From an uncultured Dehalococcoidia bacterium (GTDB lineage Bacteria > Chloroflexota > Dehalococcoidia > Lucifugimonadales > UBA1123), in the NCBI GenBank assembly GCA_964537915.1, contig CAZIDM010000007.1, positions 8,879 to 72,878 on the forward strand: a stretch of 64,000 nucleotides of DNA, given 5' to 3'. Each line of letters opens with the position of its first letter. The first letter of the stretch is position 1. Below are positions 4,453-61,566 of the stretch, piece after piece. Position numbers and translations under genes: made by a program. A model generated the notes under the pieces. That model made no database searches and had not been told where the DNA came from. It saw only the letters and a program-made list of their open reading frames with translations.

Positions 4453-4524
4453 GGGGCTGTAACTCAGTTGGGAGAACGCGCTCTTGCACAGCGGAGGTAG
4501 GGGGATCGAATCCCCTCAACTCCA
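4453..4524 (+). tRNA. tRNA-Ala(UGC)-like sequence, probably degenerate (pseudo-tRNA)
   Basis: Cloverleaf folded by hand. Acceptor GGGGCUG/CAACUCC with the G3:U70 Ala identity pair and A73. Anticodon loop CUUGCAC, with TGC at 4485-4487. T-arm GGGGG-AUCGAAU-CCCCU. Defects: C5/A68 mismatch, two D-stem mismatches (ACUC/GAAC), only 4 bp in the anticodon stem, A instead of U at position 54, and no encoded CCA. Confidence 0.5.
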
Positions 4525-29230: not shown

Positions 29231-30073
29231 GTGACCATGACACCGGGAACCGAACTGATAGAACTCGAAACAGGCGTATTCGCGCGACTGCACGAGGGAC
29301 TTACCAACGCTGGCATCCTCATCGGCGACGAGGGCGTGCTGGTGATCGACTCGCTGCGAGTCCCCTCGTTCGCGCGGGACCTTATCCAGGACGTCAAGCA
29401 CATCACCGACAAGCCGATCCAGTACGTGATCGACACGCACTCGCACTGGGACCACGCGTGGGGCAACGAGGAGTTCCCCGATGCCACGATCATCGGACAC
29501 GAAAACTGCTACAACGAGATGGTGGACGTCGAGTGGAACAGGCAGTGGCGCGAGAACGTGATGAGCTCCGGTGACTCGTGGTCCGAAGAGGCCGGACTGG
29601 TGAACATCACGCCTCCAAACCTCACGTTCGAGACGAGCATGAGGCTCTACTTCGGCGGCAGGGAGTTGCACCTCAGGTACCTCGGCAAGGCGCACACGAG
29701 CGGCGACACTCACATACACCTGCCGGACGACGGCATCGTCTTCTGCGGCGACGTCGCGCAGGACGGCGGAGTCCCCTACCTCGGCGACTCCTACCCTGAC
29801 GAGTGGCCCGACACCGACGACCGCCTGGTCGGTCTGCCAATCCAGCGATTCGTCTCCGGGCACGGCCCGGTCGGAGAGCACTCCGCGCTGGAGGAGGCGA
29901 GGGACTTCATCTACGACCTCTTCGGCAGTCTCAGGACCGCCATCAGCGAGGGCCGGAACGCCCAGGATGCCGCGTCCTCAGTGGTAGCCGCTCTCACCCC
30001 ACGCTACGGAAGCTGGCGCAGCTTCGAACGCCTCGAGGAGACCCTGCCCGACGTCTACGCCAAGATGGCGTGA
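29231..30073 (+). CDS. MBL-fold metallo-hydrolase
   Basis: VIDTHSHWDHAWGN (HxHxDH) plus the downstream HTSGDT and GH motifs. Confidence 0.85.
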   Translation: MTMTPGTELIELETGVFARLHEGLTNAGILIGDEGVLVIDSLRVPSFARDLIQDVKHITDKPIQYVIDTHSHWDHAWGNEEFPDATIIGHENCYNEMVDVEWNRQWRENVMSSGDSWSEEAGLVNITPPNLTFETSMRLYFGGRELHLRYLGKAHTSGDTHIHLPDDGIVFCGDVAQDGGVPYLGDSYPDEWPDTDDRLVGLPIQRFVSGHGPVGEHSALEEARDFIYDLFGSLRTAISEGRNAQDAASSVVAALTPRYGSWRSFERLEETLPDVYAKMA

Positions 30074-30092
30074 TTTCTGACTGGAGTCGGCA

Positions 30093-30785
30093 TTGAACGA
30101 ACACGCGGCACTGAGGGGCAGCCAGCGCTGGCTTCAGGTGGCAGTGAATCGATCCCCGGATGTCATTGACGATGCCATCTCCGAAGCAATGGGCCTCGGG
30201 CAGTCCGAGACTATCGAGTGGCTTTCGCCCCTGGAGTCCGAGGACTTCATCGAGTACAGGGATCGCGCGTTCCTCGAACGTCTCGGACTGAGTCCCCAGC
30301 ACCGTCAGCTTGCTGACTTCTGGCCTGCCGGCGGACCTGTATGGGACGGCCTGGCTCGAACGAGTTCAGGGCGATCTCTCCTGATCGAGGCCAAGGCAAA
30401 CGTCCCGGAGTTCGACAGCAGTCCGACCGGCGCGTCAGGGCGGTCCCTCACAAAGATAGAAGAGGCGCTGGAAGAGACCAGGACGTTCCTGCGAGTCACG
30501 TCAGCGACGGACTGGACAAGCTGCTTCTACCAGTACGCCAACAGGCTGGCACACCTCTACTTCCTGAGGGAGCTGAACGGGATCGACGCCGCCCTGGTCT
30601 TCGTCTACTTCACCGGCGACACTACGGTCCCCGGCAGGGATCCCGTTCCGCGTGAGGGATGGGAGGCCGCAATCGGACTGGCAACGAATCACCTCGGCGT
30701 TCGCTTGAGTTCCCCCTGGATTCGAGAGAACGTGGCCGACGTCTTCATCGACATCAGAGAGCTCAGCCATATCTCCTGGCCATAG
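30093..30785 (+). CDS. hypothetical protein with a PD-(D/E)xK-like motif
   Basis: 230 aa with a TTG start. [27 protein letters not shown] fits D-x13-ExK. No named family recognised. Confidence 0.55.
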
Positions 30786-30825
30786 TCGACAGGCTATTGC
30801 CGTTGTCACCCGAGAGGACATACTA

Positions 30826-31107
30826 ATGCCTATGAAGAACCCGCCCCACCCCGGATTGTACATCCGCCATGATTGCCTTGAGCCTCTCGGCCTCAGCGTT
30901 ACGGATGCCGCCGCCCATCTTGGTGTCAGCCGTAAGCAGCTATCCGACGTGCTAAATGGTCGCTCAGGGATCTCAGCCGAGATGGCCATACGCTTGGACA
31001 AGGCATTCGGTGGCGGTGCAGCAGCTTGGTATCAGCTACAGGCGGCTTATGATCTGGCACAGGTGTTGAAGAGGGCCGATGAGATCGAGGTACAGCGGGT
31101 GGCCTGA
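30826..31107 (+). CDS. higA: HigA-family antitoxin (XRE HTH), with no HigB upstream
   Basis: [58 protein letters not shown]...[10 protein letters not shown] is collinear with the HigA at 37028. Confidence 0.8.
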
Positions 31108-31222
31108 TAGATGATACTGCGTCGGTTTTCATACCCCACAACTCCCCCTGCCCTTGACATAAAAGTACATCTGTTCTATTATCGTGCCAAGACAATAACC
31201 TCTGGACCCAAGCTCCCGGCAC

Positions 31223-32062
31223 ATGACACTCTCAGAATACATCCTCGAAAACACCGACGACGGTATCGACATGGCCCGTCTCCTCATCGACGTGATGAAC
31301 GGCTTCATCCGCGGTGTCAAGCTCAGCCACAGACTCACCGCAGCCAGGCTGCTAACCATCTACGGCTTCCAGGATGCCCGAGACTTCATCGACGACAATA
31401 CCCTCAACCCCTATGACAATGGGCGACAGTGGGTCGTAAGCGACCCCGAACTCGCAAGGCTCATCAGGGCCAGGACCAACGACGGCCATGAGATGTGCGA
31501 CTTTCTCATAGACGTCATGTGGGGAAAGGTCGAACGCACCCGCGTCGGACACCGGGTGTCAGCGGCCAGGGAGCTCCTGAACAGGGCGTTCGGCAGGAGC
31601 CAGGGCATACCACTGCCCAATCCTCCACGAGTGACCGCGCCCCGGGGAACAATCAAGAGGACAGACCAACCGGTCGAGTCTGCGCCCGTTCATCCTGTTG
31701 AAGATCCGCCGCGGTCGGAACCTGCCGAAGAGCAGCCGGCTACACCTGCCCAAACAGCGGTCCTGACCGAGACAGACAAGCAGGTCGAGTCTGCGCCCGT
31801 TCATCCTGTTGAAGATCCGCCGAGGCGGGAGCCTGATCGAAGTGAGCCTATCGAAGGACAGCCGGAGCGTGAAGCCAACGACAACTTCGACCCCGACATC
31901 TACAGGGCAGCCAGCAGGTGCATAGACCCAAACTTCGATCCGATGCGCTATGCCACCGACGATGACTACTTCTGGAACTACGACGGCTGTGACAACATTA
32001 GCTGCCCATATCACGGCGATCCCGAAGACCCCGACTACGACCCCAACGCCCAACACTACTGA
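31223..32062 (+). CDS. hypothetical protein with an internal N-terminal duplication and two in-frame 37-codon-spaced repeat modules
   Basis: DG(I/H)(D/E)M..(L/F)LIDVM.G......(S/G)HR(L/V)(T/S)AAR.LL...(G)F occurs twice. An identical 40-nt module lies at 31672-31711 and 31783-31822. The C-terminus is acidic and Asp/Pro-rich with CxxxxC. Confidence 0.55.
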   Translation: MTLSEYILENTDDGIDMARLLIDVMNGFIRGVKLSHRLTAARLLTIYGFQDARDFIDDNTLNPYDNGRQWVVSDPELARLIRARTNDGHEMCDFLIDVMWGKVERTRVGHRVSAARELLNRAFGRSQGIPLPNPPRVTAPRGTIKRTDQPVESAPVHPVEDPPRSEPAEEQPATPAQTAVLTETDKQVESAPVHPVEDPPRREPDRSEPIEGQPEREANDNFDPDIYRAASRCIDPNFDPMRYATDDDYFWNYDGCDNISCPYHGDPEDPDYDPNAQHY

Positions 32063-32253
32063 CCCGCATGGTCTTCATCGACCTCCCGGCAATGCAAGGA
32101 CATGATTGGATATGAAGGCTGGGGAACTCTCGTTCCCTCTTCTTCACCTGTCCCTCCGGTCCGCGATTTGAGCATACTCGCATGTCGCAATACAATGTGC
32201 TGAGAGTCCCCCTCGTTTCGTAGGCAGCCATCACAGTCAGGAGGGTCCCCGCC

Positions 32254-33666
32254 ATGTCAGACCGCGACACCGCGCTACTAGCTCACCTCATGCGCCGCGC
32301 CGGGTTTGGCGCGAGACCCGACGAACTCGACCGATACGCCGAAATTGGATATGAGGCGACCGTCGAGGAGTTTCTGCATCCCGAGAACATGCCGCCCGCG
32401 CTCGAGGACGAAGACCTCATCCGGCGCTACCACGTCGACGAGAACGGCCTGCTGATCGTCGACAGCTGCCAGGCGTACCTGGTCTACCGCATGATCAACA
32501 CGCGCCGTCCCCTCGAGGAGAAGCTCGCCCTGTTCTGGCACAGCATCTTCGCAACGGGCTACACCAAGCTCAACCAGCCAAAGTCGATCCTGAACCAGAT
32601 AGAGATGTTCCGCAGGAACGGCTTTGGGCGATTCAGGGACCTGCTCGTCGATATCTCCAGGGACCCCGCGATGATCTTCTGGCTCGACAACAAGGACAAC
32701 CACAAGGACGCCGTTAACGAGAACTACGGCAGGGAGATCCTGGAGCTGTTCTCGATGGGCGTCGGCAACTACACCGAGGACGACGTCAGGCAGTGTTCGC
32801 GAGCGTTCACCGGCTGGACCATTCGCAACGCCACACACCACACTGTTCGCGCTTCGGTGGACTCGGTTTGGCCATACGGCCGCCTCGACTGGCAGTACGA
32901 GTACCGTGACGACGACCACGACGAGGGCGAGAAGACGTTCCTCGGCCACCAGGGCGCGTTCGATGGCGAGGACGTCATCGACATCATCTGCGATCAGCCC
33001 GCGACCGCGCGCTTCATATCGCGTCACCTGTACAACTTCTTCGTCGCCGACGAGCCGCAGGTGCCCGCGTGGGAGACCGTGCCGCCGCGTGACCCTGAAG
33101 CGATCGACACGCTCGTCGACTGCTACTTCGAGAGCGGCGGTGAGATTCGCGCCATGCTGCGGACGCTGTTCAACTCCGGCTTCTTCAAAAACGCCCGGTT
33201 CGAGAAAGTGAAGAGCCCTGCGGAGATGGTCGCAGGCGCGGCGCGGCAGTCCGGCGGCTTCGCGTTCCCGGAGGTCGAGGACATCCAGCTCGCGCTCCAG
33301 ACCGGCAGCATGGGCCAGATGCTCGTCGATCCTCCGAGCGTGGAAGGCTGGCACTCAGGCCGGGAGTGGGTCACCACCGCGAGCCTCGTCAACCGCGTCA
33401 ACTTCGCCGTGCAGCAGTTCGCCGACGACACGAAGCCGGGAGTCAGGTCCATCGTCGAGCGCGTCCAGGCTCGCGGGCCGGGACTCACCCCCGAACAGCT
33501 CGTGGATAGCTGCCTGGAGCTCATGGGATCGATGAGCATGTCGGAGCGCACCAGGCAGGAGCTCATCGAGCACGCAGAGAACGCTGCGGCCGACGGCGAG
33601 TCGACCGAGAGCGTGATGGCGCTGCTGCAGCTCATAGTCGCTACCCGCGAATACCAGATGGCCTGA
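32254..33666 (+). CDS. DUF1800 domain-containing protein
   Basis: LLAHLMRRAGFGARPDELD...WHSIFAT...FWLDN.DN...NENYGREILELFSMGVGNYTE.DV is the typical DUF1800 pattern. Confidence 0.8.
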   Translation: MSDRDTALLAHLMRRAGFGARPDELDRYAEIGYEATVEEFLHPENMPPALEDEDLIRRYHVDENGLLIVDSCQAYLVYRMINTRRPLEEKLALFWHSIFATGYTKLNQPKSILNQIEMFRRNGFGRFRDLLVDISRDPAMIFWLDNKDNHKDAVNENYGREILELFSMGVGNYTEDDVRQCSRAFTGWTIRNATHHTVRASVDSVWPYGRLDWQYEYRDDDHDEGEKTFLGHQGAFDGEDVIDIICDQPATARFISRHLYNFFVADEPQVPAWETVPPRDPEAIDTLVDCYFESGGEIRAMLRTLFNSGFFKNARFEKVKSPAEMVAGAARQSGGFAFPEVEDIQLALQTGSMGQMLVDPPSVEGWHSGREWVTTASLVNRVNFAVQQFADDTKPGVRSIVERVQARGPGLTPEQLVDSCLELMGSMSMSERTRQELIEHAENAAADGESTESVMALLQLIVATREYQMA

Positions 33667-34757: not shown

Positions 34758-36098
34758 ATGACCAGCTCCATTGAGGCCATTACTCAGCTCAAGGAAGAAC
34801 TCGACTGCCTGCGTCCCCTGCCGTCCGAAGTTATCGATCGAGTGGAGCAGAAGCTCAGGCTGGAGGCCAACTACAACTCGAACGCCATAGAGGGAAATAC
34901 GCTTACCTATGGAGAGACTCGCAGCCTCATCCTGCACGGTCTGACGGCTCACGGCAAGCCAATGCGCGACCACCTCGACATCGAGGGTCATGACGACGCT
35001 GTCAAAGCTATTACGGCCGCTGTCGAGAACCATGAGGAACTGACCGAAGCCTTCATTCGCAATCTCCACCTGATTCTTCTGAAAGAACCATACGAAACTG
35101 AGGCGGAGACTCCCGGCGGCGCTCGCATAAGGCGGACCATTTCGGTCGGCGACTACAAGACCGTTTCCAACAATGTGCGGACATCCACTGGCGAGATCTA
35201 CTACTTCACCCCTCCCGAGCAGGTAAAGCCAGCGATGAGCGATCTCATCGACTGGTACAGGGAGATGGAGCGCAAAGGGGAACACCCCATCGTAGTAGCG
35301 GCCACCTTTCACTACCGCTTCGTTCGTATCCACCCATTCGACGACGGCAACGGGCGAATGGCCCGGCTACTAATGAACATGATCCTCATCAGGCACGGCT
35401 ACACTGTCGCCCTGATCCGTCTGGAAAGCCGCGACAACTATCTCGACCATCTCGAAAGGGCTGACAGGTCCGAAGACCTGACAGAGTTCATCAACTTCAT
35501 CGCCAACTCCTGTGAGTATTCACTGAACCTCTATCTGAGAGCAGCTCGTGGCGAGAGCATAGAAGATGTGGATGACATAGATAAGGAGATCGAACTCTTC
35601 AAGCGATCCCTGGCCACTAGCGCCGACCAGATTCCATTCGCCCGACAGTACATCGTGTCCACACTAGCCCCGTTCGCAGAGTACTGCCGGAGCAAGGCCG
35701 AACTGCTTGAAGGGACCTTCGTCAGCGTTGACACGCACAGCACGCTCCACGGGACTACAGCAGACGGGCAAGTGTGTGACCTCACTCACCTCCTAAGTGC
35801 CCAGCCGACTCTTCTTGAGCTGGATTTCTTGCGAGGCGAATTAACTTCGATCTCGTTTCTGCTGAGAAGTCATTTTGATAGCTTCCAAGGTAGCCGGAAT
35901 ATGAACCGTGGTATTACGGTCGAAAACACCACGGAAAAGTCCAGCAGTGCTTGGAGATTTGTCACTAGCCAAAGTCCTGTCCGTCGTTTTTTCCAGCCGG
36001 AACTGGAATATGATGGCCGAGATTTAGATGAACTCAAAGGGACATTCAACACGCTCTTGCGATTGATGATGCATGAGTTACAGGAGCGGTCTACGTAG
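34758..36098 (+). CDS. Fic-family protein (Fic_N + Fic core + ~170-aa uncharacterised C-terminal extension)
   Basis: Fic motif HPFDDGNGRMARLLMN. The N-terminal SNAIEGN element fits (S/T)xxxE(G/N). The 3' third has lower G+C. Confidence 0.85.
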   Translation: MTSSIEAITQLKEELDCLRPLPSEVIDRVEQKLRLEANYNSNAIEGNTLTYGETRSLILHGLTAHGKPMRDHLDIEGHDDAVKAITAAVENHEELTEAFIRNLHLILLKEPYETEAETPGGARIRRTISVGDYKTVSNNVRTSTGEIYYFTPPEQVKPAMSDLIDWYREMERKGEHPIVVAATFHYRFVRIHPFDDGNGRMARLLMNMILIRHGYTVALIRLESRDNYLDHLERADRSEDLTEFINFIANSCEYSLNLYLRAARGESIEDVDDIDKEIELFKRSLATSADQIPFARQYIVSTLAPFAEYCRSKAELLEGTFVSVDTHSTLHGTTADGQVCDLTHLLSAQPTLLELDFLRGELTSISFLLRSHFDSFQGSRNMNRGITVENTTEKSSSAWRFVTSQSPVRRFFQPELEYDGRDLDELKGTFNTLLRLMMHELQERST

Positions 36099-36159
36099 TC
36101 GGCGGATTCGACATCCGGCGGAGCGACACGGCTGAGGCCTTGCTGACGCAGCTAATCGG

Positions 36160-36448: not shown

Positions 36449-36631
36449 ATGCATCTCTGCTACATTGACGAGTCAGGTACGCCCGATGTCCCGGGCAATA
36501 CCTCTCACTACGTCCTGGCAGGCCTCTATGTTGCCGACGAAGACTGGAAGAGCCATCACGTGCAGACAGCATGTGGACTGTACAAATGGGTGACGAGGAG
36601 TGTGCCGCGATATCAGACGCCCCGGTGGTAG
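36449..36631 (+). pseudogene. DUF3800-like N-terminal fragment
   Basis: MHLCYIDESGTPD...SHYVLAGL is the DUF3800 N-terminus. The ORF ends after 60 aa, whereas the family is ~200+ aa as I remember it. Confidence 0.45.
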
Positions 36632-36742: not shown

Positions 36743-37015
36743 ATGGAGTTCAGACATCGGGGGCTGAGGCGACTGGCTGAGCGCGACGATCCGAGTCGGC
36801 TACCTCCGGAGATACTTGGACGTACCAGGCGAATCCTGGCGCAGCTCGCGGCCGCACGCTCCCCTCGAGACATGGACTTGCCCGGTGCGCGTCTACATCC
36901 CTTAACAGGCGATCGTGCCGGTCAGTGGAGTGTTCGTGTAACTGGCAACTGGCGAATAGTCTTCCGATTTGAGGACGGTGTGGCCGTAGATGTGGACCTG
37001 GTTGACTATCACTGA
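36743..37015 (+). CDS. higB: HigB-type toxin (RelE-fold, plasmid maintenance system killer)
   Basis: FRHRGLRRL....D.SRLPPE...R..RIL..L..A.....M..PG.RLH.L.GDRAGQWSVRVTGNWRIVFRFEDG.A.DVDLVDYH. Confidence 0.85.
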   Translation: MEFRHRGLRRLAERDDPSRLPPEILGRTRRILAQLAAARSPRDMDLPGARLHPLTGDRAGQWSVRVTGNWRIVFRFEDGVAVDVDLVDYH

Positions 37016-37027
37016 AGGAGGGCACCC

Positions 37028-37309
37028 ATGATTAACCCGCCGCACCCTGGCGAAAGCGTACGGGAGTGCATTGACGAGGCAGGCATGACGGTGAAGGACT
37101 GCGCCATGCAAATTGGCGTCACTCCAAACAACATGTACAGGCTTGTGAACGGACGAATCGGGATCTCTCCGAAGGTTGCTCTTGGTCTTGAGACTCTCGG
37201 CTGGAGCAACGCGGAGTTCTGGTTGCGGCTGCAGGCGCAGTACGACCTCGCGCAGCTCCGTCTGCACGACTCGCCGCGGGAAGCAGATGTTGCTACGGTT
37301 GAATCATAG
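37028..37309 (+). CDS. higA: HigA-family antitoxin
   Basis: INPPHPGESVRECIDEAGMTVKDCAMQIGVTPNNMYRLVNGRIGISPKVALGL...FWLRLQAQYDL. Confidence 0.85.
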   Translation: MINPPHPGESVRECIDEAGMTVKDCAMQIGVTPNNMYRLVNGRIGISPKVALGLETLGWSNAEFWLRLQAQYDLAQLRLHDSPREADVATVES

Positions 37310-37497
37310 CTAGTGCCGTATCCATATGGTTCTGACATATGTCGACCTGCCGCGAACTCTGGATTCGCCGCGGCGAATGACGATTGAGGCGAATCGGACT
37401 GTCATATTCATCTGGACTTACTACTAGTGACGTCTATCTCTATCAGGAAGAGTTATATTGAGACCCAATGACAACGAGATACGGAGGAGAAGCAACC

Positions 37498-38211
37498 ATG
37501 GCATCTACCACCCTTAGAACGATCGTGGCGGGCGACCCGGCCCCGGACTTTGAGCTGCCGTCTCTGGCTGGCGGCTCGGTGAGGCTCTCGGACTATCGGG
37601 GCAGGAAGGTCGTCCTGTTTATGTGGGCGTCGTGGTGAGGATGCAGGGAGCAGCTGCCAGGCTGGCAGCAGTTCAGCGAGGATAACCAGGGACGTGGTGT
37701 TGAGGTGCTGTCGGTAGCCATCGACGCGCAGTCGTCCGACAAGCCGCGCCACTACGTTGAGAAGGCCGGCGCGACGTTCACGACGGTCGTCGACCAGGAG
37801 AACGTGCTCAGCGACCTCTACGGCTTCAGGGCCATTCCCAACGGGTTCCTGATCGACGAGGACGGCATCGTGCGCTTCAGCGCGCTCGGAGGCTTCGACA
37901 TCCGCCGGAGCGAGACGGCTGAAGTCATCGAACGATGGCTCTCAGGCCAGAGTGAAGCGCCAGGCGGTGAAGAGTCGACGGACGTGGACTCCGGCCACTC
38001 GGAGGCCAACGCGATCTTCCGCGAGGGACTGGAACTCTTCAACTCCGGCAGCGCCGATGAGGCTCTGGCGCGATGGCGACAGGGACTCGAGCTCGACCCG
38101 GACAACTACCTCATCCGCAAGCAGATCTGGGCCGTGGAGAACCCGGATAGGTTCTACGATGGCGATGTCGACTACACCTGGCAGCAGGAGCAGCTCGCGA
38201 GAGGACTATAG
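37498..38211 (+). CDS. TlpA/redoxin-like thioredoxin-fold protein with a C-terminal TPR-like region; in-frame TGA (37636-37638) at the active-site Cys position makes it a candidate selenoprotein
   Basis: ATG 37498 follows a GGAGGAG. Translation: [61 protein letters not shown]... It continues in the same frame into listed ORF 37705..38211 with no other stop. Confidence 0.6.
37649..37673 (+). promoter_or_regulatory. SECIS-like hairpin downstream of the in-frame UGA
   Basis: Stem gctgcc/ggcagc (37653-58 / 37664-69), extended by agc/gtt around an A/A mismatch. The apical loop is AGGCU. The hairpin starts 11 nt after the UGA. Confidence 0.45.
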
Positions 38212-59854: not shown

Positions 59855-60125
59855 ACTTTCTAACGATCACATCACGCCGACTTACGCTCGTCCAGAACCC
59901 TAAGAGGAACGACGGGAAGCAGTTCACGGCGTCCCTCCACTAGGGTCCATTACTTATCTATCTCACCGACTATCGACTATTTCTTTCACACTCACTGATT
60001 TCCTTAAACCAACTCCTCTTCGAAGAGGAGGGGTCATTTCGACGTCTATATCCTGCTACGCACTTCGCCAGTTGTTGGCGGCTCTGCTGTGCTAGGTGTC
60101 GCGTTGGGGTAAGTTGTCGACACGT

Positions 60126-60197
60126 ATTGTATGTATATTTACCATTGTATTTGATGTTTTTATTGTATGAATATTCCATATTGTATTTCCTCTTTTT
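60126..60197. repeat. four 18-bp-phased iteron-like repeats with an ATTGTAT core
   Basis: ATTGTAT occurs at 60126, 60144, 60162 and 60180, at exact 18-bp spacing. The units are otherwise degenerate and AT-rich. Confidence 0.8.
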
Positions 60198-60930
60198 AAT
60201 CCATTAGTTTTCTTCATGTTCGGTCCTTTCTTTCATCTTTAGACTAAGCTCAGATGACCAGTTATACTCAAGGCTCGTGTATCATGAGCCTATAGCGACG
60301 TATTGGGCAAAAATTCAGTTGAAAGCTGATTAAGTATAAAGTCTGTTCATTCATTAGTGCTATCCCATATTCAATACTGCATACATATATTATACCACAT
60401 GCTGTCAACTATTTACCGATTTATTGAAAGACATTAATTGATTAACTATCTATGTCTGGATTCATCTCTCTGTAGAACCACAGCTCTTTCAGACCAATTA
60501 CGCGAGGCTACTCACAAGAAGCTGCTACTACGGATGAAGCAGTGCACACAATTCACGGTTCTTAGGAAACAATTGAGCCAACAGAATGCCGCACGCAAAA
60601 GACTGACACATCGAAGTCGTATATTCGCATGGCCTCACCATTGATAGCATGGCATGCACTTCAACACGGACAGTGACCTAAGGACAATTGACCAGTTCCG
60701 CCCTCAAGACGATAGATTGAAACCGTAAGGTCAGGTCGTTCAGGCACACGTTAAACTAGGCCAGCCAAATGGCCAGTGAGTCGTATGGCAGTCGCTGGCT
60801 GCGACTCCTTCCAGCAGGTGGTACCACGGTATTAGGGTAAGATCGACGATCACCCAGGTTCCTGGATTCTCTCTCTGTTAATTTGGCGATACACTGAGCT
60901 AGCATATGCTGAATTATTCATAGGTCAGAC

Positions 60931-61566
60931 ATGCGAGGGAGTTCGTTCTTGAACTATCTGACAACATACCATCCTCTCGTAGAAACGCGTCGTGGCAGGG
61001 CCGCCATCGACACGTTCGGTTTCCCGCCGTATGTGGATGACTCATGTCGCAGGGAACCAGACTTCGAGTCTGAGTTTCCCTCAATCACTGCCTTGTGCAG
61101 AAGAAGCAAATTCGCACCGCGACTGTGGGAGTCAGACTACATTGCTTACATGACGATCAAAGGCAAGTATCCTGACCTGGATGAACCTCACTGGCGCTTG
61201 ACAGCCATCCTTAGAGTAGTGAATAGGTTCGAGACGCACCGAGAGGCAGCGAACTGGTATCAGGAGCAGGGATTGCCACTACCCAGCAATTGTATAGTCG
61301 ACGGCAACTTGCCTTTTGAACTGGAGATGACGGGCAATCGTGATAGCCACCAATTCGTGAGGTTCTGGGACGCAATCTACCGAAAACGAGTCCGTGACTA
61401 CTCAATGTTCTTGGTAACTGAACCTGAATTTCTTGAAATCACATACCCACCTATTGTGACAGAAACCATGCTGCAAGATATATTCGGTAGGGTTCCGGCA
61501 ACGCGCACTCCACCTCGCATCACTGACGAACAACTAATGGCCCTGATCGAAGCAGTCGCCATTTGA
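60931..61566 (+). CDS. hypothetical 211-aa protein in the low-G+C island
   Basis: It is the only convincing ORF in 59855-61970. No SD is obvious and no family is recognised. Confidence 0.5.
   Translation: MRGSSFLNYLTTYHPLVETRRGRAAIDTFGFPPYVDDSCRREPDFESEFPSITALCRRSKFAPRLWESDYIAYMTIKGKYPDLDEPHWRLTAILRVVNRFETHREAANWYQEQGLPLPSNCIVDGNLPFELEMTGNRDSHQFVRFWDAIYRKRVRDYSMFLVTEPEFLEITYPPIVTETMLQDIFGRVPATRTPPRITDEQLMALIEAVAI

Follow-up and report, generated by a model that had tools for sequence, protein, structure and literature searches.

Three neighbouring genes of a variable Dehalococcoidia islet read as independent modules: a HigA-family antitoxin, a PD-(D/E)xK-like protein and a repeat protein

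We analysed a 64,000-nucleotide (nt) stretch of contig CAZIDM010000007.1 from an uncultured Dehalococcoidia bacterium (the window), in which three consecutive genes encode a 230-amino-acid (aa) protein with a PD-(D/E)xK-like motif (p230), a HigA-family antitoxin (HigA1) and a 279-aa protein with an internal duplication (p279). The three are probably functionally independent modules that deletions have made neighbours, HigA1 being orphaned, p230 standing alone and p279 forming a self-contained unit. An earlier note on this DNA had described the same open reading frames (ORFs) on the + strand, with gaps of 40 nt and 115 nt, and these were recovered at the same coordinates (Table 1). It had also proposed a three-gene cassette. 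This did not stand, as p279 has its own promoter, its paralogues at other sites have neither HigA nor a p230 homologue next to them, and the link between p230 and HigA recurs in one of the 109 p230 loci outside the syntenic genomes. Elsewhere, the genes adjoin one another only in very close relatives, as a matter of common descent. The closest relatives of the locus are Dehalococcoidia metagenome-assembled genomes, and three of our comparison loci, L001 and L004 (one contig) and L005, come from close relatives that are syntenic with the islet of the window.

HigA1, the loss of higB and the rearranging islet

HigA1 scores 98.5 bits against the HigA equivalog TIGR02607 (cut-off 47.7) and matches HTH_3 with an E-value of 1.5e-9. 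It is 42% identical to HigA2, encoded further along the window (E 5e-22), so the paralogy seen by the earlier note is confirmed, as is the canonical partner of HigA2, a 90-aa HigB (PF05015, E 1.7e-17) encoded 12 nt upstream. Directly upstream of HigA1 in the window there is no cognate HigB; the 40-nt spacer is all that separates it from p230.

The related genomes preserve what was lost. In L005, a 111-aa ORF stops 12 nt upstream of higA, at the distance that also separates HigB2 from HigA2 in the canonical pair. Over its C-terminal 38 residues it can be aligned with the HigB partner of a close HigA1 homologue from L041 (E 2e-6), except that an internal deletion has taken out the NWRIVFR core. 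The ORF as a whole was rejected as a HigB, having no Pfam match and no alignment beyond these 38 residues. L001 retains the last ten higB codons (...VSDVNYIDYH*) behind an in-frame TAA, and in the window nothing is left of higB but the GAGAGG Shine-Dalgarno spacer, with ~127 nt gone relative to L001. A 206-aa ORF and a GIY-YIG gene still separate p230 from higA in L005, over a distance of 2.4 kb. Since higB remnants lie between p230 and higA in L001 and L005, the juxtaposition of the two genes arose by deletion, and p230 came to stand in the "HigB slot" through the stepwise deletion of higB. The idea that p230 replaces HigB as the toxin of HigA1 was therefore abandoned. A former canonical higBA pair would thus have lost higB in steps and left HigA1 as the surviving antitoxin.

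The same spectrum of higB states recurs beside further HigA1-type genes (82-87% identical). Full-length higB precedes the HigA1 homologue in L041 and L043, the copy in L041 already carrying a stop codon, while higB is lost in L042, L044 and L045, which are syntenic with L043, and is also missing from L040. Loss of higB with retention of higA is thus recurrent in the HigA1 subfamily. HigA1 itself is under strong purifying selection (dN/dS 0.03-0.08). We therefore regard it as a functional orphan antitoxin, intact and constrained and without a cognate toxin. Orphan antitoxins are mostly leftovers of degraded toxin-antitoxin (TA) pairs, for which regulatory or anti-addiction roles have been proposed (PMC7354431), and the constraint on HigA1 in the absence of a toxin fits this picture. 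HigA1 resembles other orphan type II antitoxins in being a full-length, TIGR02607-positive protein under purifying selection whose relatives keep higB pseudogene remnants. It differs from them in that the deletion joined higA to the 3' flank of the unrelated p230, mimicking a TA operon, and removed its native promoter and operator. The gap between p230 and higA contains neither a promoter nor a terminator. Co-transcription of the two genes in the window genome is therefore probable and would be a by-product of the deletion. HigA1, having lost its native promoter region, would now probably be expressed by read-through from p230. What selection most plausibly maintains in it is regulation through DNA binding or an "anti-addiction" role, the neutralisation of HigB paralogues.

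A different arrangement was observed in another lineage, in L042, L044 and L045 (3001-4034), where the stop codon of the HigA1-type gene overlaps the start of a 245-aa gene, followed by a gene for an MR_MLE enzyme. A Pfam search with the 245-aa protein gave no match, and the protein was discarded as a relative of p230 or p279, to which it is unrelated.

The rest of the locus has also changed among close relatives, and it is evidently a small decaying and rearranging variable islet between a metallo-beta-lactamase (MBL)-fold gene and a DUF1800 gene. Compared with L001 and L005, the window has lost ~137 nt of the spacer between the MBL-fold gene and p230 as well as all of higB. In both relatives, the 3' end of higA has received a BrnT/BrnA toxin-antitoxin insert of ~0.9 kb (L001:7140-8146, L005:8416-9375; the orthologous window positions are ~31006-31110), flanked by a duplicate of that higA end of ~100 bp in L001 and ~60 bp in L005. 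The junction CAATGTCCATACTCAGTCAGCCCC is common to both, the insert contains no recombinase, and the window represents the unoccupied state of the insertion site. The p279 gene is split by an insertion sequence (IS) element in L001 and absent altogether from L005. We also noted an element CCCTCTCCCTTGATGGC(C)TGACAGG(A/G)GTAT at L001:5901-5933, L005:4902-4933 and L038:5860-5889. It lies 5' of p230 in L001 and L005 (deleted in the window) and just 3' of an unrelated p279 paralogue in L038. The shared element CCCTCTCCCTTGATGGCTGACAGG was considered as a cassette boundary and set aside, being present at just two independent sites.

The p230 family

Two further observations of the earlier note were upheld, namely that p230 carries a D-x13-ExK signature and that it belongs to no family that could be named, including known housekeeping families. 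D85, E99 and K101 are invariant in 32 close homologues. In 78 more diverse representatives (34-56% identical to the query), S10, W43, S45, P46, W77, G81, W84, D85, E99, E106, I122, Q147 and R151 are invariant, and K101, E54 and D57 are among the residues conserved in at least 90%. Of 22 extended members, 20 retain the putative site (E54, D57, D85, E99, K101, E106, Q147 and R151). In the two exceptions, P0296 and P0320, the losses of E54, D85, K101 and Q147 coincide and the structural Trp, Ser and Pro residues are spared, the pattern expected of one functional site. The database gene call for p230 begins at Met33 and gives 198 aa; the 230-aa start is supported because the N-terminus is conserved and the TTG start is common to L001 and L005.

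In the AlphaFold2 (AF2) model of p230 (predicted TM-score, pTM, 0.77), D85 opens a strand at 86-90 and E99 and K101 lie within its hairpin partner at 95-102, followed by helices with Q147 and R151 and then by a strand at 166-174. The block of residues 81-100 has a predicted local distance difference test score (pLDDT) of 81-91, and the block from residue 101 one of 59. The predicted order of elements fits the textbook PD-(D/E)xK layout, alpha-beta-beta-beta-alpha-beta. Sequence-profile comparison with PDB, using shallow and deep alignments, returned nothing relevant. Foldseek searches, which the earlier note had suggested and which we ran for both p230 and p279, did not identify a fold: for p230, the best match in PDB had an E-value of 0.09, with EndoMS as the best nuclease-related match (TM 0.29), and the best match in BFVD (E 0.008) was unrelated. 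We therefore call the protein PD-(D/E)xK-like and do not claim membership, since profile and structure searches give no confirmation.

The family is large, with more than 2000 homologues at 90% clustering, at least 2183 representatives at 50% clustering and at least 588 matches in JGI metagenomes. Horizontally dispersed, it occurs sporadically in Dehalococcoidia, Latescibacterota, Acidobacteriota, Proteobacteria and Myxococcota. Neither p230 nor p279 has a usable match in Pfam, NCBIfam, PADLOC v2 or PHROGs (best PHROG E 0.097 and 0.011, respectively). A Pfam scan of the 78 diverse p230 members found nothing, and cluster look-ups gave no informative names. Pfam, NCBIfam and PADLOC also gave no match of p230 to HigB/RelE or another known toxin fold, and at 230 aa the protein is far bigger than the ~90-aa HigB. 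Comparison with its orthologues gives a dN/dS of ~0.2, indicating purifying selection. We found no match to p230 in the phage genome collection, one match in plasmids (annotated as "hypothetical protein") and a single viral-contig match in IMG/VR, at a contig edge.

A HigA gene within 5 kb of a p230 homologue was found in the syntenic L001/L004 and L005 and, among the 109 other loci, in L080, where it has its own intact HigB. We also counted the 55 ORFs that adjoin p230 in 28 genome loci. No Pfam family occurs in more than two of them, and the PADLOC families (methyltransferase models, Cas3c and WYL) are represented by one ORF each. An ExoIII/Xth-like apurinic/apyrimidinic (AP) endonuclease is fused to the N-terminus of the p230 domain in six of the 150 top representatives (TIGR00633, 75.9 bits; PDB ExoIII match, E 4e-11) and is the sole recurrent fusion partner. 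One further member carries Ada_Zn_binding (PF02805, 42 bits), and another carries DUF429, an RNase H-like domain (PMC3985635). At five independent loci, a p230 homologue neighbours a DUF2779 gene, encoding a fusion of a Cas4-like nuclease and a 3'-5' exonuclease (PMC13621843). The window contains no ExoIII-like domain, and there is no DUF2779 homologue among the annotated ORFs around the islet, the window not having been searched specifically for DUF2779.

Two other proteins were noted beside p230 homologues. In L006, L007, L010 and L012, the gene immediately 5' of p230 on the same strand encodes a product of ~290 aa whose two ends resemble EEP motifs (SWNI... and ...SDHCRLLIEV). This gene, ~90-105 nt upstream, was tried as a split ExoIII-like gene and rejected, with an hmmsearch E-value of 0.0011, no PDB match and all four loci representing one syntenic position. 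A 184-aa protein with a D-x12-EAK motif (FDLCLFSEDAIVIIEAKVQQ) is encoded between the p230 homologue and the DUF2779 gene in L100 and L104, and just 3' of the p230 homologue in L083. Together with the p230 homologue and DUF2779, it may form a three-nuclease module in that sublineage.

These fusions and neighbours suggest DNA as the substrate of p230 and nucleases that process ends or lesions as its partners; most likely it is a metal-dependent DNA nuclease that works beside activities of the exonuclease or AP-endonuclease type. Its role would be either lesion and end processing in repair or restriction-like defence. Judged by its distribution and neighbours, p230 is best described as a stand-alone gene of a large uncurated family and not as the toxin of HigA1.

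p279 and its sites

The internal duplication of p279 proposed by the earlier note is well supported: residues 3-44 and 77-118 are 43% identical over 42 residues, with a Smith-Waterman score of 80 against 20.6 +/- 3.8 in shuffles (z = 15.7), and one homologue has a third copy of the module. The predicted architecture comprises two three-helix repeats (residues 1-62 and 63-135), a disordered Pro/Glu-rich linker and an acidic Cys/His C-terminal domain (residues ~220-279). In this tail, whose acidic Cys/His character is conserved, C233, C256, C261 and H264 are invariant or nearly so. The linker contains a 65-nt direct repeat (31660-31724 and 31771-31835, 89% identical, 111 nt apart) that encodes a repeated VESAPVHPVEDPPR, and its length and repeat content vary widely across homologues. 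The AF2 model of p279 has no significant Foldseek match in PDB, and the protein remains, as noted earlier, uncharacterised. With 237 matches and several copies per genome, the family appears restricted to Dehalococcoidia-like genomes, and it was not found in JGI metagenomes or IMG/VR.

The sigma-70-type promoter of p279 is kept 5' of its paralogues in L001 and L036-L039. Its spacer contains the pseudo-palindrome AGTACAnnTGTTCT, which occurs once in the window and is reversed in orientation in one paralogue. Homology between p279 paralogues begins at the -35 box and stops within 35 nt past the stop codon; together with the promoter, these limits make p279 a self-contained ~1-kb unit. The strong promoter with its palindromic, operator-like site would point to autoregulation. 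Read as GTAC-N4-GTTC (window 31164-31177, and also in the promoters of L001 and L036-L039), the palindrome is one base off per half-site from the LexA (Cheo) box of the Gram-positive/Dehalococcoides type, GAAC-N4-GTTC. SOS control of p279 is conceivable.

At all seven independent sites, p279 directly adjoins accessory cargo, with housekeeping genes beyond. The cargo is an Eco57I-like enzyme between pheS and pheT at one site, DUF6414 with an HI1420-type antitoxin at another, and elsewhere a DDE transposase, SIR2-HerA with IS66, a Type ISP restriction-modification (R-M) system, McrBC with PhdYeFM-PIN on the opposite side, and, in the window, p230 with HigA. None of the other six sites has an adjacent HigA or p230 homologue. 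p279 is often transcribed divergently from the neighbouring defence systems, and at one site an identical p279 protein (P0148) is found with different cargo. One p230 locus, L018, has a distant p279-like gene ~3 kb off. From this context and the promoter structure, p279 is most likely a regulator, probably DNA-binding and autoregulated, that is tied to islets with defence, TA or IS genes. The protein is apparently lineage-specific, is multi-copy and, in these genomes, is encoded at the edges of such small islets.

The wider locus and the weighing of explanations

The islet lies in a region with further accessory genes (Table 1). Between an NHL-repeat gene and the HigB2-HigA2 pair, a 446-aa Fic/DOC-family protein (PF02661) is encoded at 34758-36098, so that 30-37.3 kb of the window holds several TA-type or accessory modules interspersed with conserved genes. 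A 37-nt direct repeat (36099-36135 and 37886-37922, 89% identical) brackets a DUF3800 fragment (36449-36631) and HigB2-HigA2. Its upstream copy lies directly 3' of the Fic gene stop codon and its downstream copy inside an AhpC/TSA-TPR gene that is apparently frameshifted (37468-37638 and 37705-38211). The HigB2-HigA2 segment looks like the same kind of target-duplicating insertion as the one at higA1. Further away, GC content drops to 0.44 at 60001-61000, compared with ~0.60 in the remaining window, and this block may be recently acquired DNA. An Rfam tRNA match at 4453-4524 (36.7 bits, above the gathering score) was not called by ARAGORN and may be a degenerate or unusual tRNA.

Table 1. Features of the islet, its flanks and the comparator pair (positions in the window)
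Feature	Position	Strand	Evidence or remark
MBL-fold gene, conserved left flank of the islet	29231..30073	+	PF00753, E 4.6e-22; 94% identical and syntenic in L001, L004, L005
MBL-p230 spacer, shortened by ~137 nt relative to L001/L005; AGGAGG Shine-Dalgarno lost	30074..30092	+	Alignment
p230, PD-(D/E)xK-like motif (D85, E99-A-K101, Q147, R151)	30093..30785	+	230 aa, TTG start
Deletion scar, GAGAGG Shine-Dalgarno spacer of the old higB-higA junction; ~127 nt missing relative to L001	30786..30825	+	Alignment with L001 and HigB remnant alignment
HigA1, intact orphan HigA-family antitoxin/helix-turn-helix regulator, 93 aa	30826..31107	+	TIGR02607, 98.5 bits; 40 nt 3' of p230
Own sigma-70-type promoter of p279, TTGACA-N17-TATTAT; pseudo-palindrome AGTACATCTGTTCT at 31164-31177 in the spacer	31154..31182	+	11/12 consensus match
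p279, 279 aa	31223..32062	+	115 nt 3' of HigA1; two ~60-aa helical repeats, linker, Cys/His C-terminal domain
Terminator-like hairpin 3' of p279	32121..32137	+	Consensus match only; such matches are no commoner than in shuffles
DUF1800 gene, conserved right flank of the islet	32254..33666	+	PF08811, E 5e-108; syntenic in L001, L004, L005
HigB2-HigA2, canonical pair, comparator	36743..37309	+	12-nt spacing; HigB2 at 36743-37015, HigA2 from 37028

Other explanations were weighed against the reading of three independent modules. A non-canonical type II TA pair, in which p230, as a PD-(D/E)xK nuclease toxin, has taken the place of HigB, with HigA neutralising and repressing it, is suggested by the arrangement on the same strand, 40 nt apart and without a terminator in between, by the conserved nuclease-like motif and by the persistence of the arrangement in L001. 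It is nevertheless highly improbable, given the higB remnants between the two genes in L001 and L005, the GIY-YIG gene and second ORF that separate them in L005, the lone non-syntenic HigA with its own HigB, and the p230 homologues that are found alone among housekeeping genes, which would be unlikely for an unneutralised toxin. That the genes are the relic of a prophage, satellite or integrative element, as the earlier note had also considered, is just as hard to sustain. Close relatives do differ in this region, through BrnTA and IS insertions and, in L005, the loss of p279, and the HigA-like genes match PHROG 1381, an antitoxin family. Against this, integrase, terminase and structural genes are missing from the 12 kb that we examined, nor do att repeats or phage replication genes mark the islet. 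PHROGs gave no significant match for p230 or p279. In IMG/VR, p279 is absent and the p230 family has the one contig-edge match, with none in phage genomes. There is no tRNA near the islet; ARAGORN finds none in the window, and the sole Rfam tRNA match is the one at 4453-4524.

For p230 itself, two roles deserve more consideration. An accessory DNA-repair endonuclease, which recognises a lesion or structure or makes an incision before an AP-endonuclease or exonuclease step and whose place in the islet is incidental, is a tenable if tentative reading. It draws on the ExoIII/Xth-like fusions, the single members with Ada_Zn_binding and with DUF429, the strong purifying selection and conserved length, the mostly housekeeping neighbours, and EndoMS/NucS as the sole, weak, nuclease among the top Foldseek matches; it has to contend with the low share of fusions (six of 150) and with a family that is patchy, not universal, and variable in position between related genomes. 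A single-gene restriction-like defence nuclease, for example a modification-dependent one in the style of type IV enzymes, carried as cargo of a p279-marked islet with HigA and p279 as unrelated neighbours, is possible, though we consider it on the doubtful side. On the promoter side of p279, p230 does sit where the paralogous islets have their cargo (Eco57I-like, Type ISP, McrBC and SIR2-HerA systems), and its family is sporadic across phyla and, like a type IV enzyme, lacks a methyltransferase partner. One homologue resides in a clear defence island (GmrSD, KAP NTPase, AbiJ and DUF4411), another beside WYL and PD-(D/E)XK genes on an Azospirillum plasmid, and some loci have the Cas4-like DUF2779 neighbours. 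However, no PADLOC model matches p230, the PADLOC families among its 55 adjacent ORFs are all single-ORF occurrences and most neighbours are housekeeping genes. Moreover, the ~60% identity between phyla is well above what a defence gene usually shows, the fusion partners that recur (ExoIII-type AP endonuclease and Ada zinc domain) belong to the classic repair modules, and there is no recognisable modified-base reader domain. Of the defence cassette suggested by the earlier note, the part that survived is that the genes sit in a small variable islet of a kind that elsewhere carries defence or TA genes; the cassette itself found no backing in PADLOC, which has no match for p230 or p279 and marginal helix-turn-helix matches for HigA1.

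Several points count against reading the islet as independent modules with the roles given above. The HigB remnant alignment spans only 38 aa, with an E-value from a tiny search space, and the 40-nt gap without a terminator leaves room for a recently co-opted regulatory link between p230 and higA. The association of p279 with cargo comprises seven sites, with neighbours taken from precomputed Pfam matches and no formal background rate. Overall confidence in the p279 model is low (pLDDT 62), the model has no fold match, and DNA binding and a regulatory role of p279 are what we infer. The PD-(D/E)xK assignment of p230 rests on the motif and predicted topology, with no significant match in Pfam, NCBIfam, PDB-profile or Foldseek searches.

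Compared with the PD-(D/E)xK superfamily (Cas4/RecB-type D...ExK...QxxxY, EndoMS/NucS, Vsr and MutH), p230 shares a predicted beta-hairpin with D-x13-E-x-K, the helix after it, where Q147 and R151 are invariant, and other DNA nucleases as partners. It differs in lacking a significant profile or structure match and a Cys cluster, and in a long conserved insertion (residues 44-84) between core strands 1 and 2. A new family within this known nuclease superfamily is probable. Its recurrent partners, the DUF2779 "solo Cas4-like" fusions and ExoIII-type AP endonucleases, place the p230 domain in a context of DNA-end and lesion processing, although p230 of the window, unlike those systems, is single-domain. 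BrxR/WYL and CapH are transcription regulators associated with defence systems. p279 is similar in its position beside many different defence systems and in having its own promoter with a palindrome that suggests autoregulation, a likeness of function and context only. Unlike them, it has no WYL, Xre or recognised helix-turn-helix domain and no Pfam or PADLOC match, consists of novel repeats, a linker and a Cys/His tail, is multi-copy and limited to Dehalococcoidia-like genomes, and is a presumed DNA binder. We tentatively entertain the broader idea that p279 could represent a new Dehalococcoidia-specific, islet-associated class that marks, and controls or helps to assemble, small chromosomal hotspots of defence, TA and IS turnover, and p230 a new single-gene PD-(D/E)xK-like nuclease family for DNA surveillance.

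Our results show that a gene in the "toxin slot" beside an antitoxin can be an artefact of toxin deletion, with the decay series visible here over three related genomes. The p230 family, with its at least 2183 clusters and a strictly conserved nuclease-like site, is a candidate for curation and biochemistry, for which the Rosetta-stone links to ExoIII-type AP endonucleases, Ada-type repair modules and the predicted nucleases DUF429 and DUF2779 are available. The association of p279 with defence islets is the best lead from this locus, and if the adjacency is true genome-wide, p279 could serve as a search handle for defence islets in the poorly studied Dehalococcoidia.

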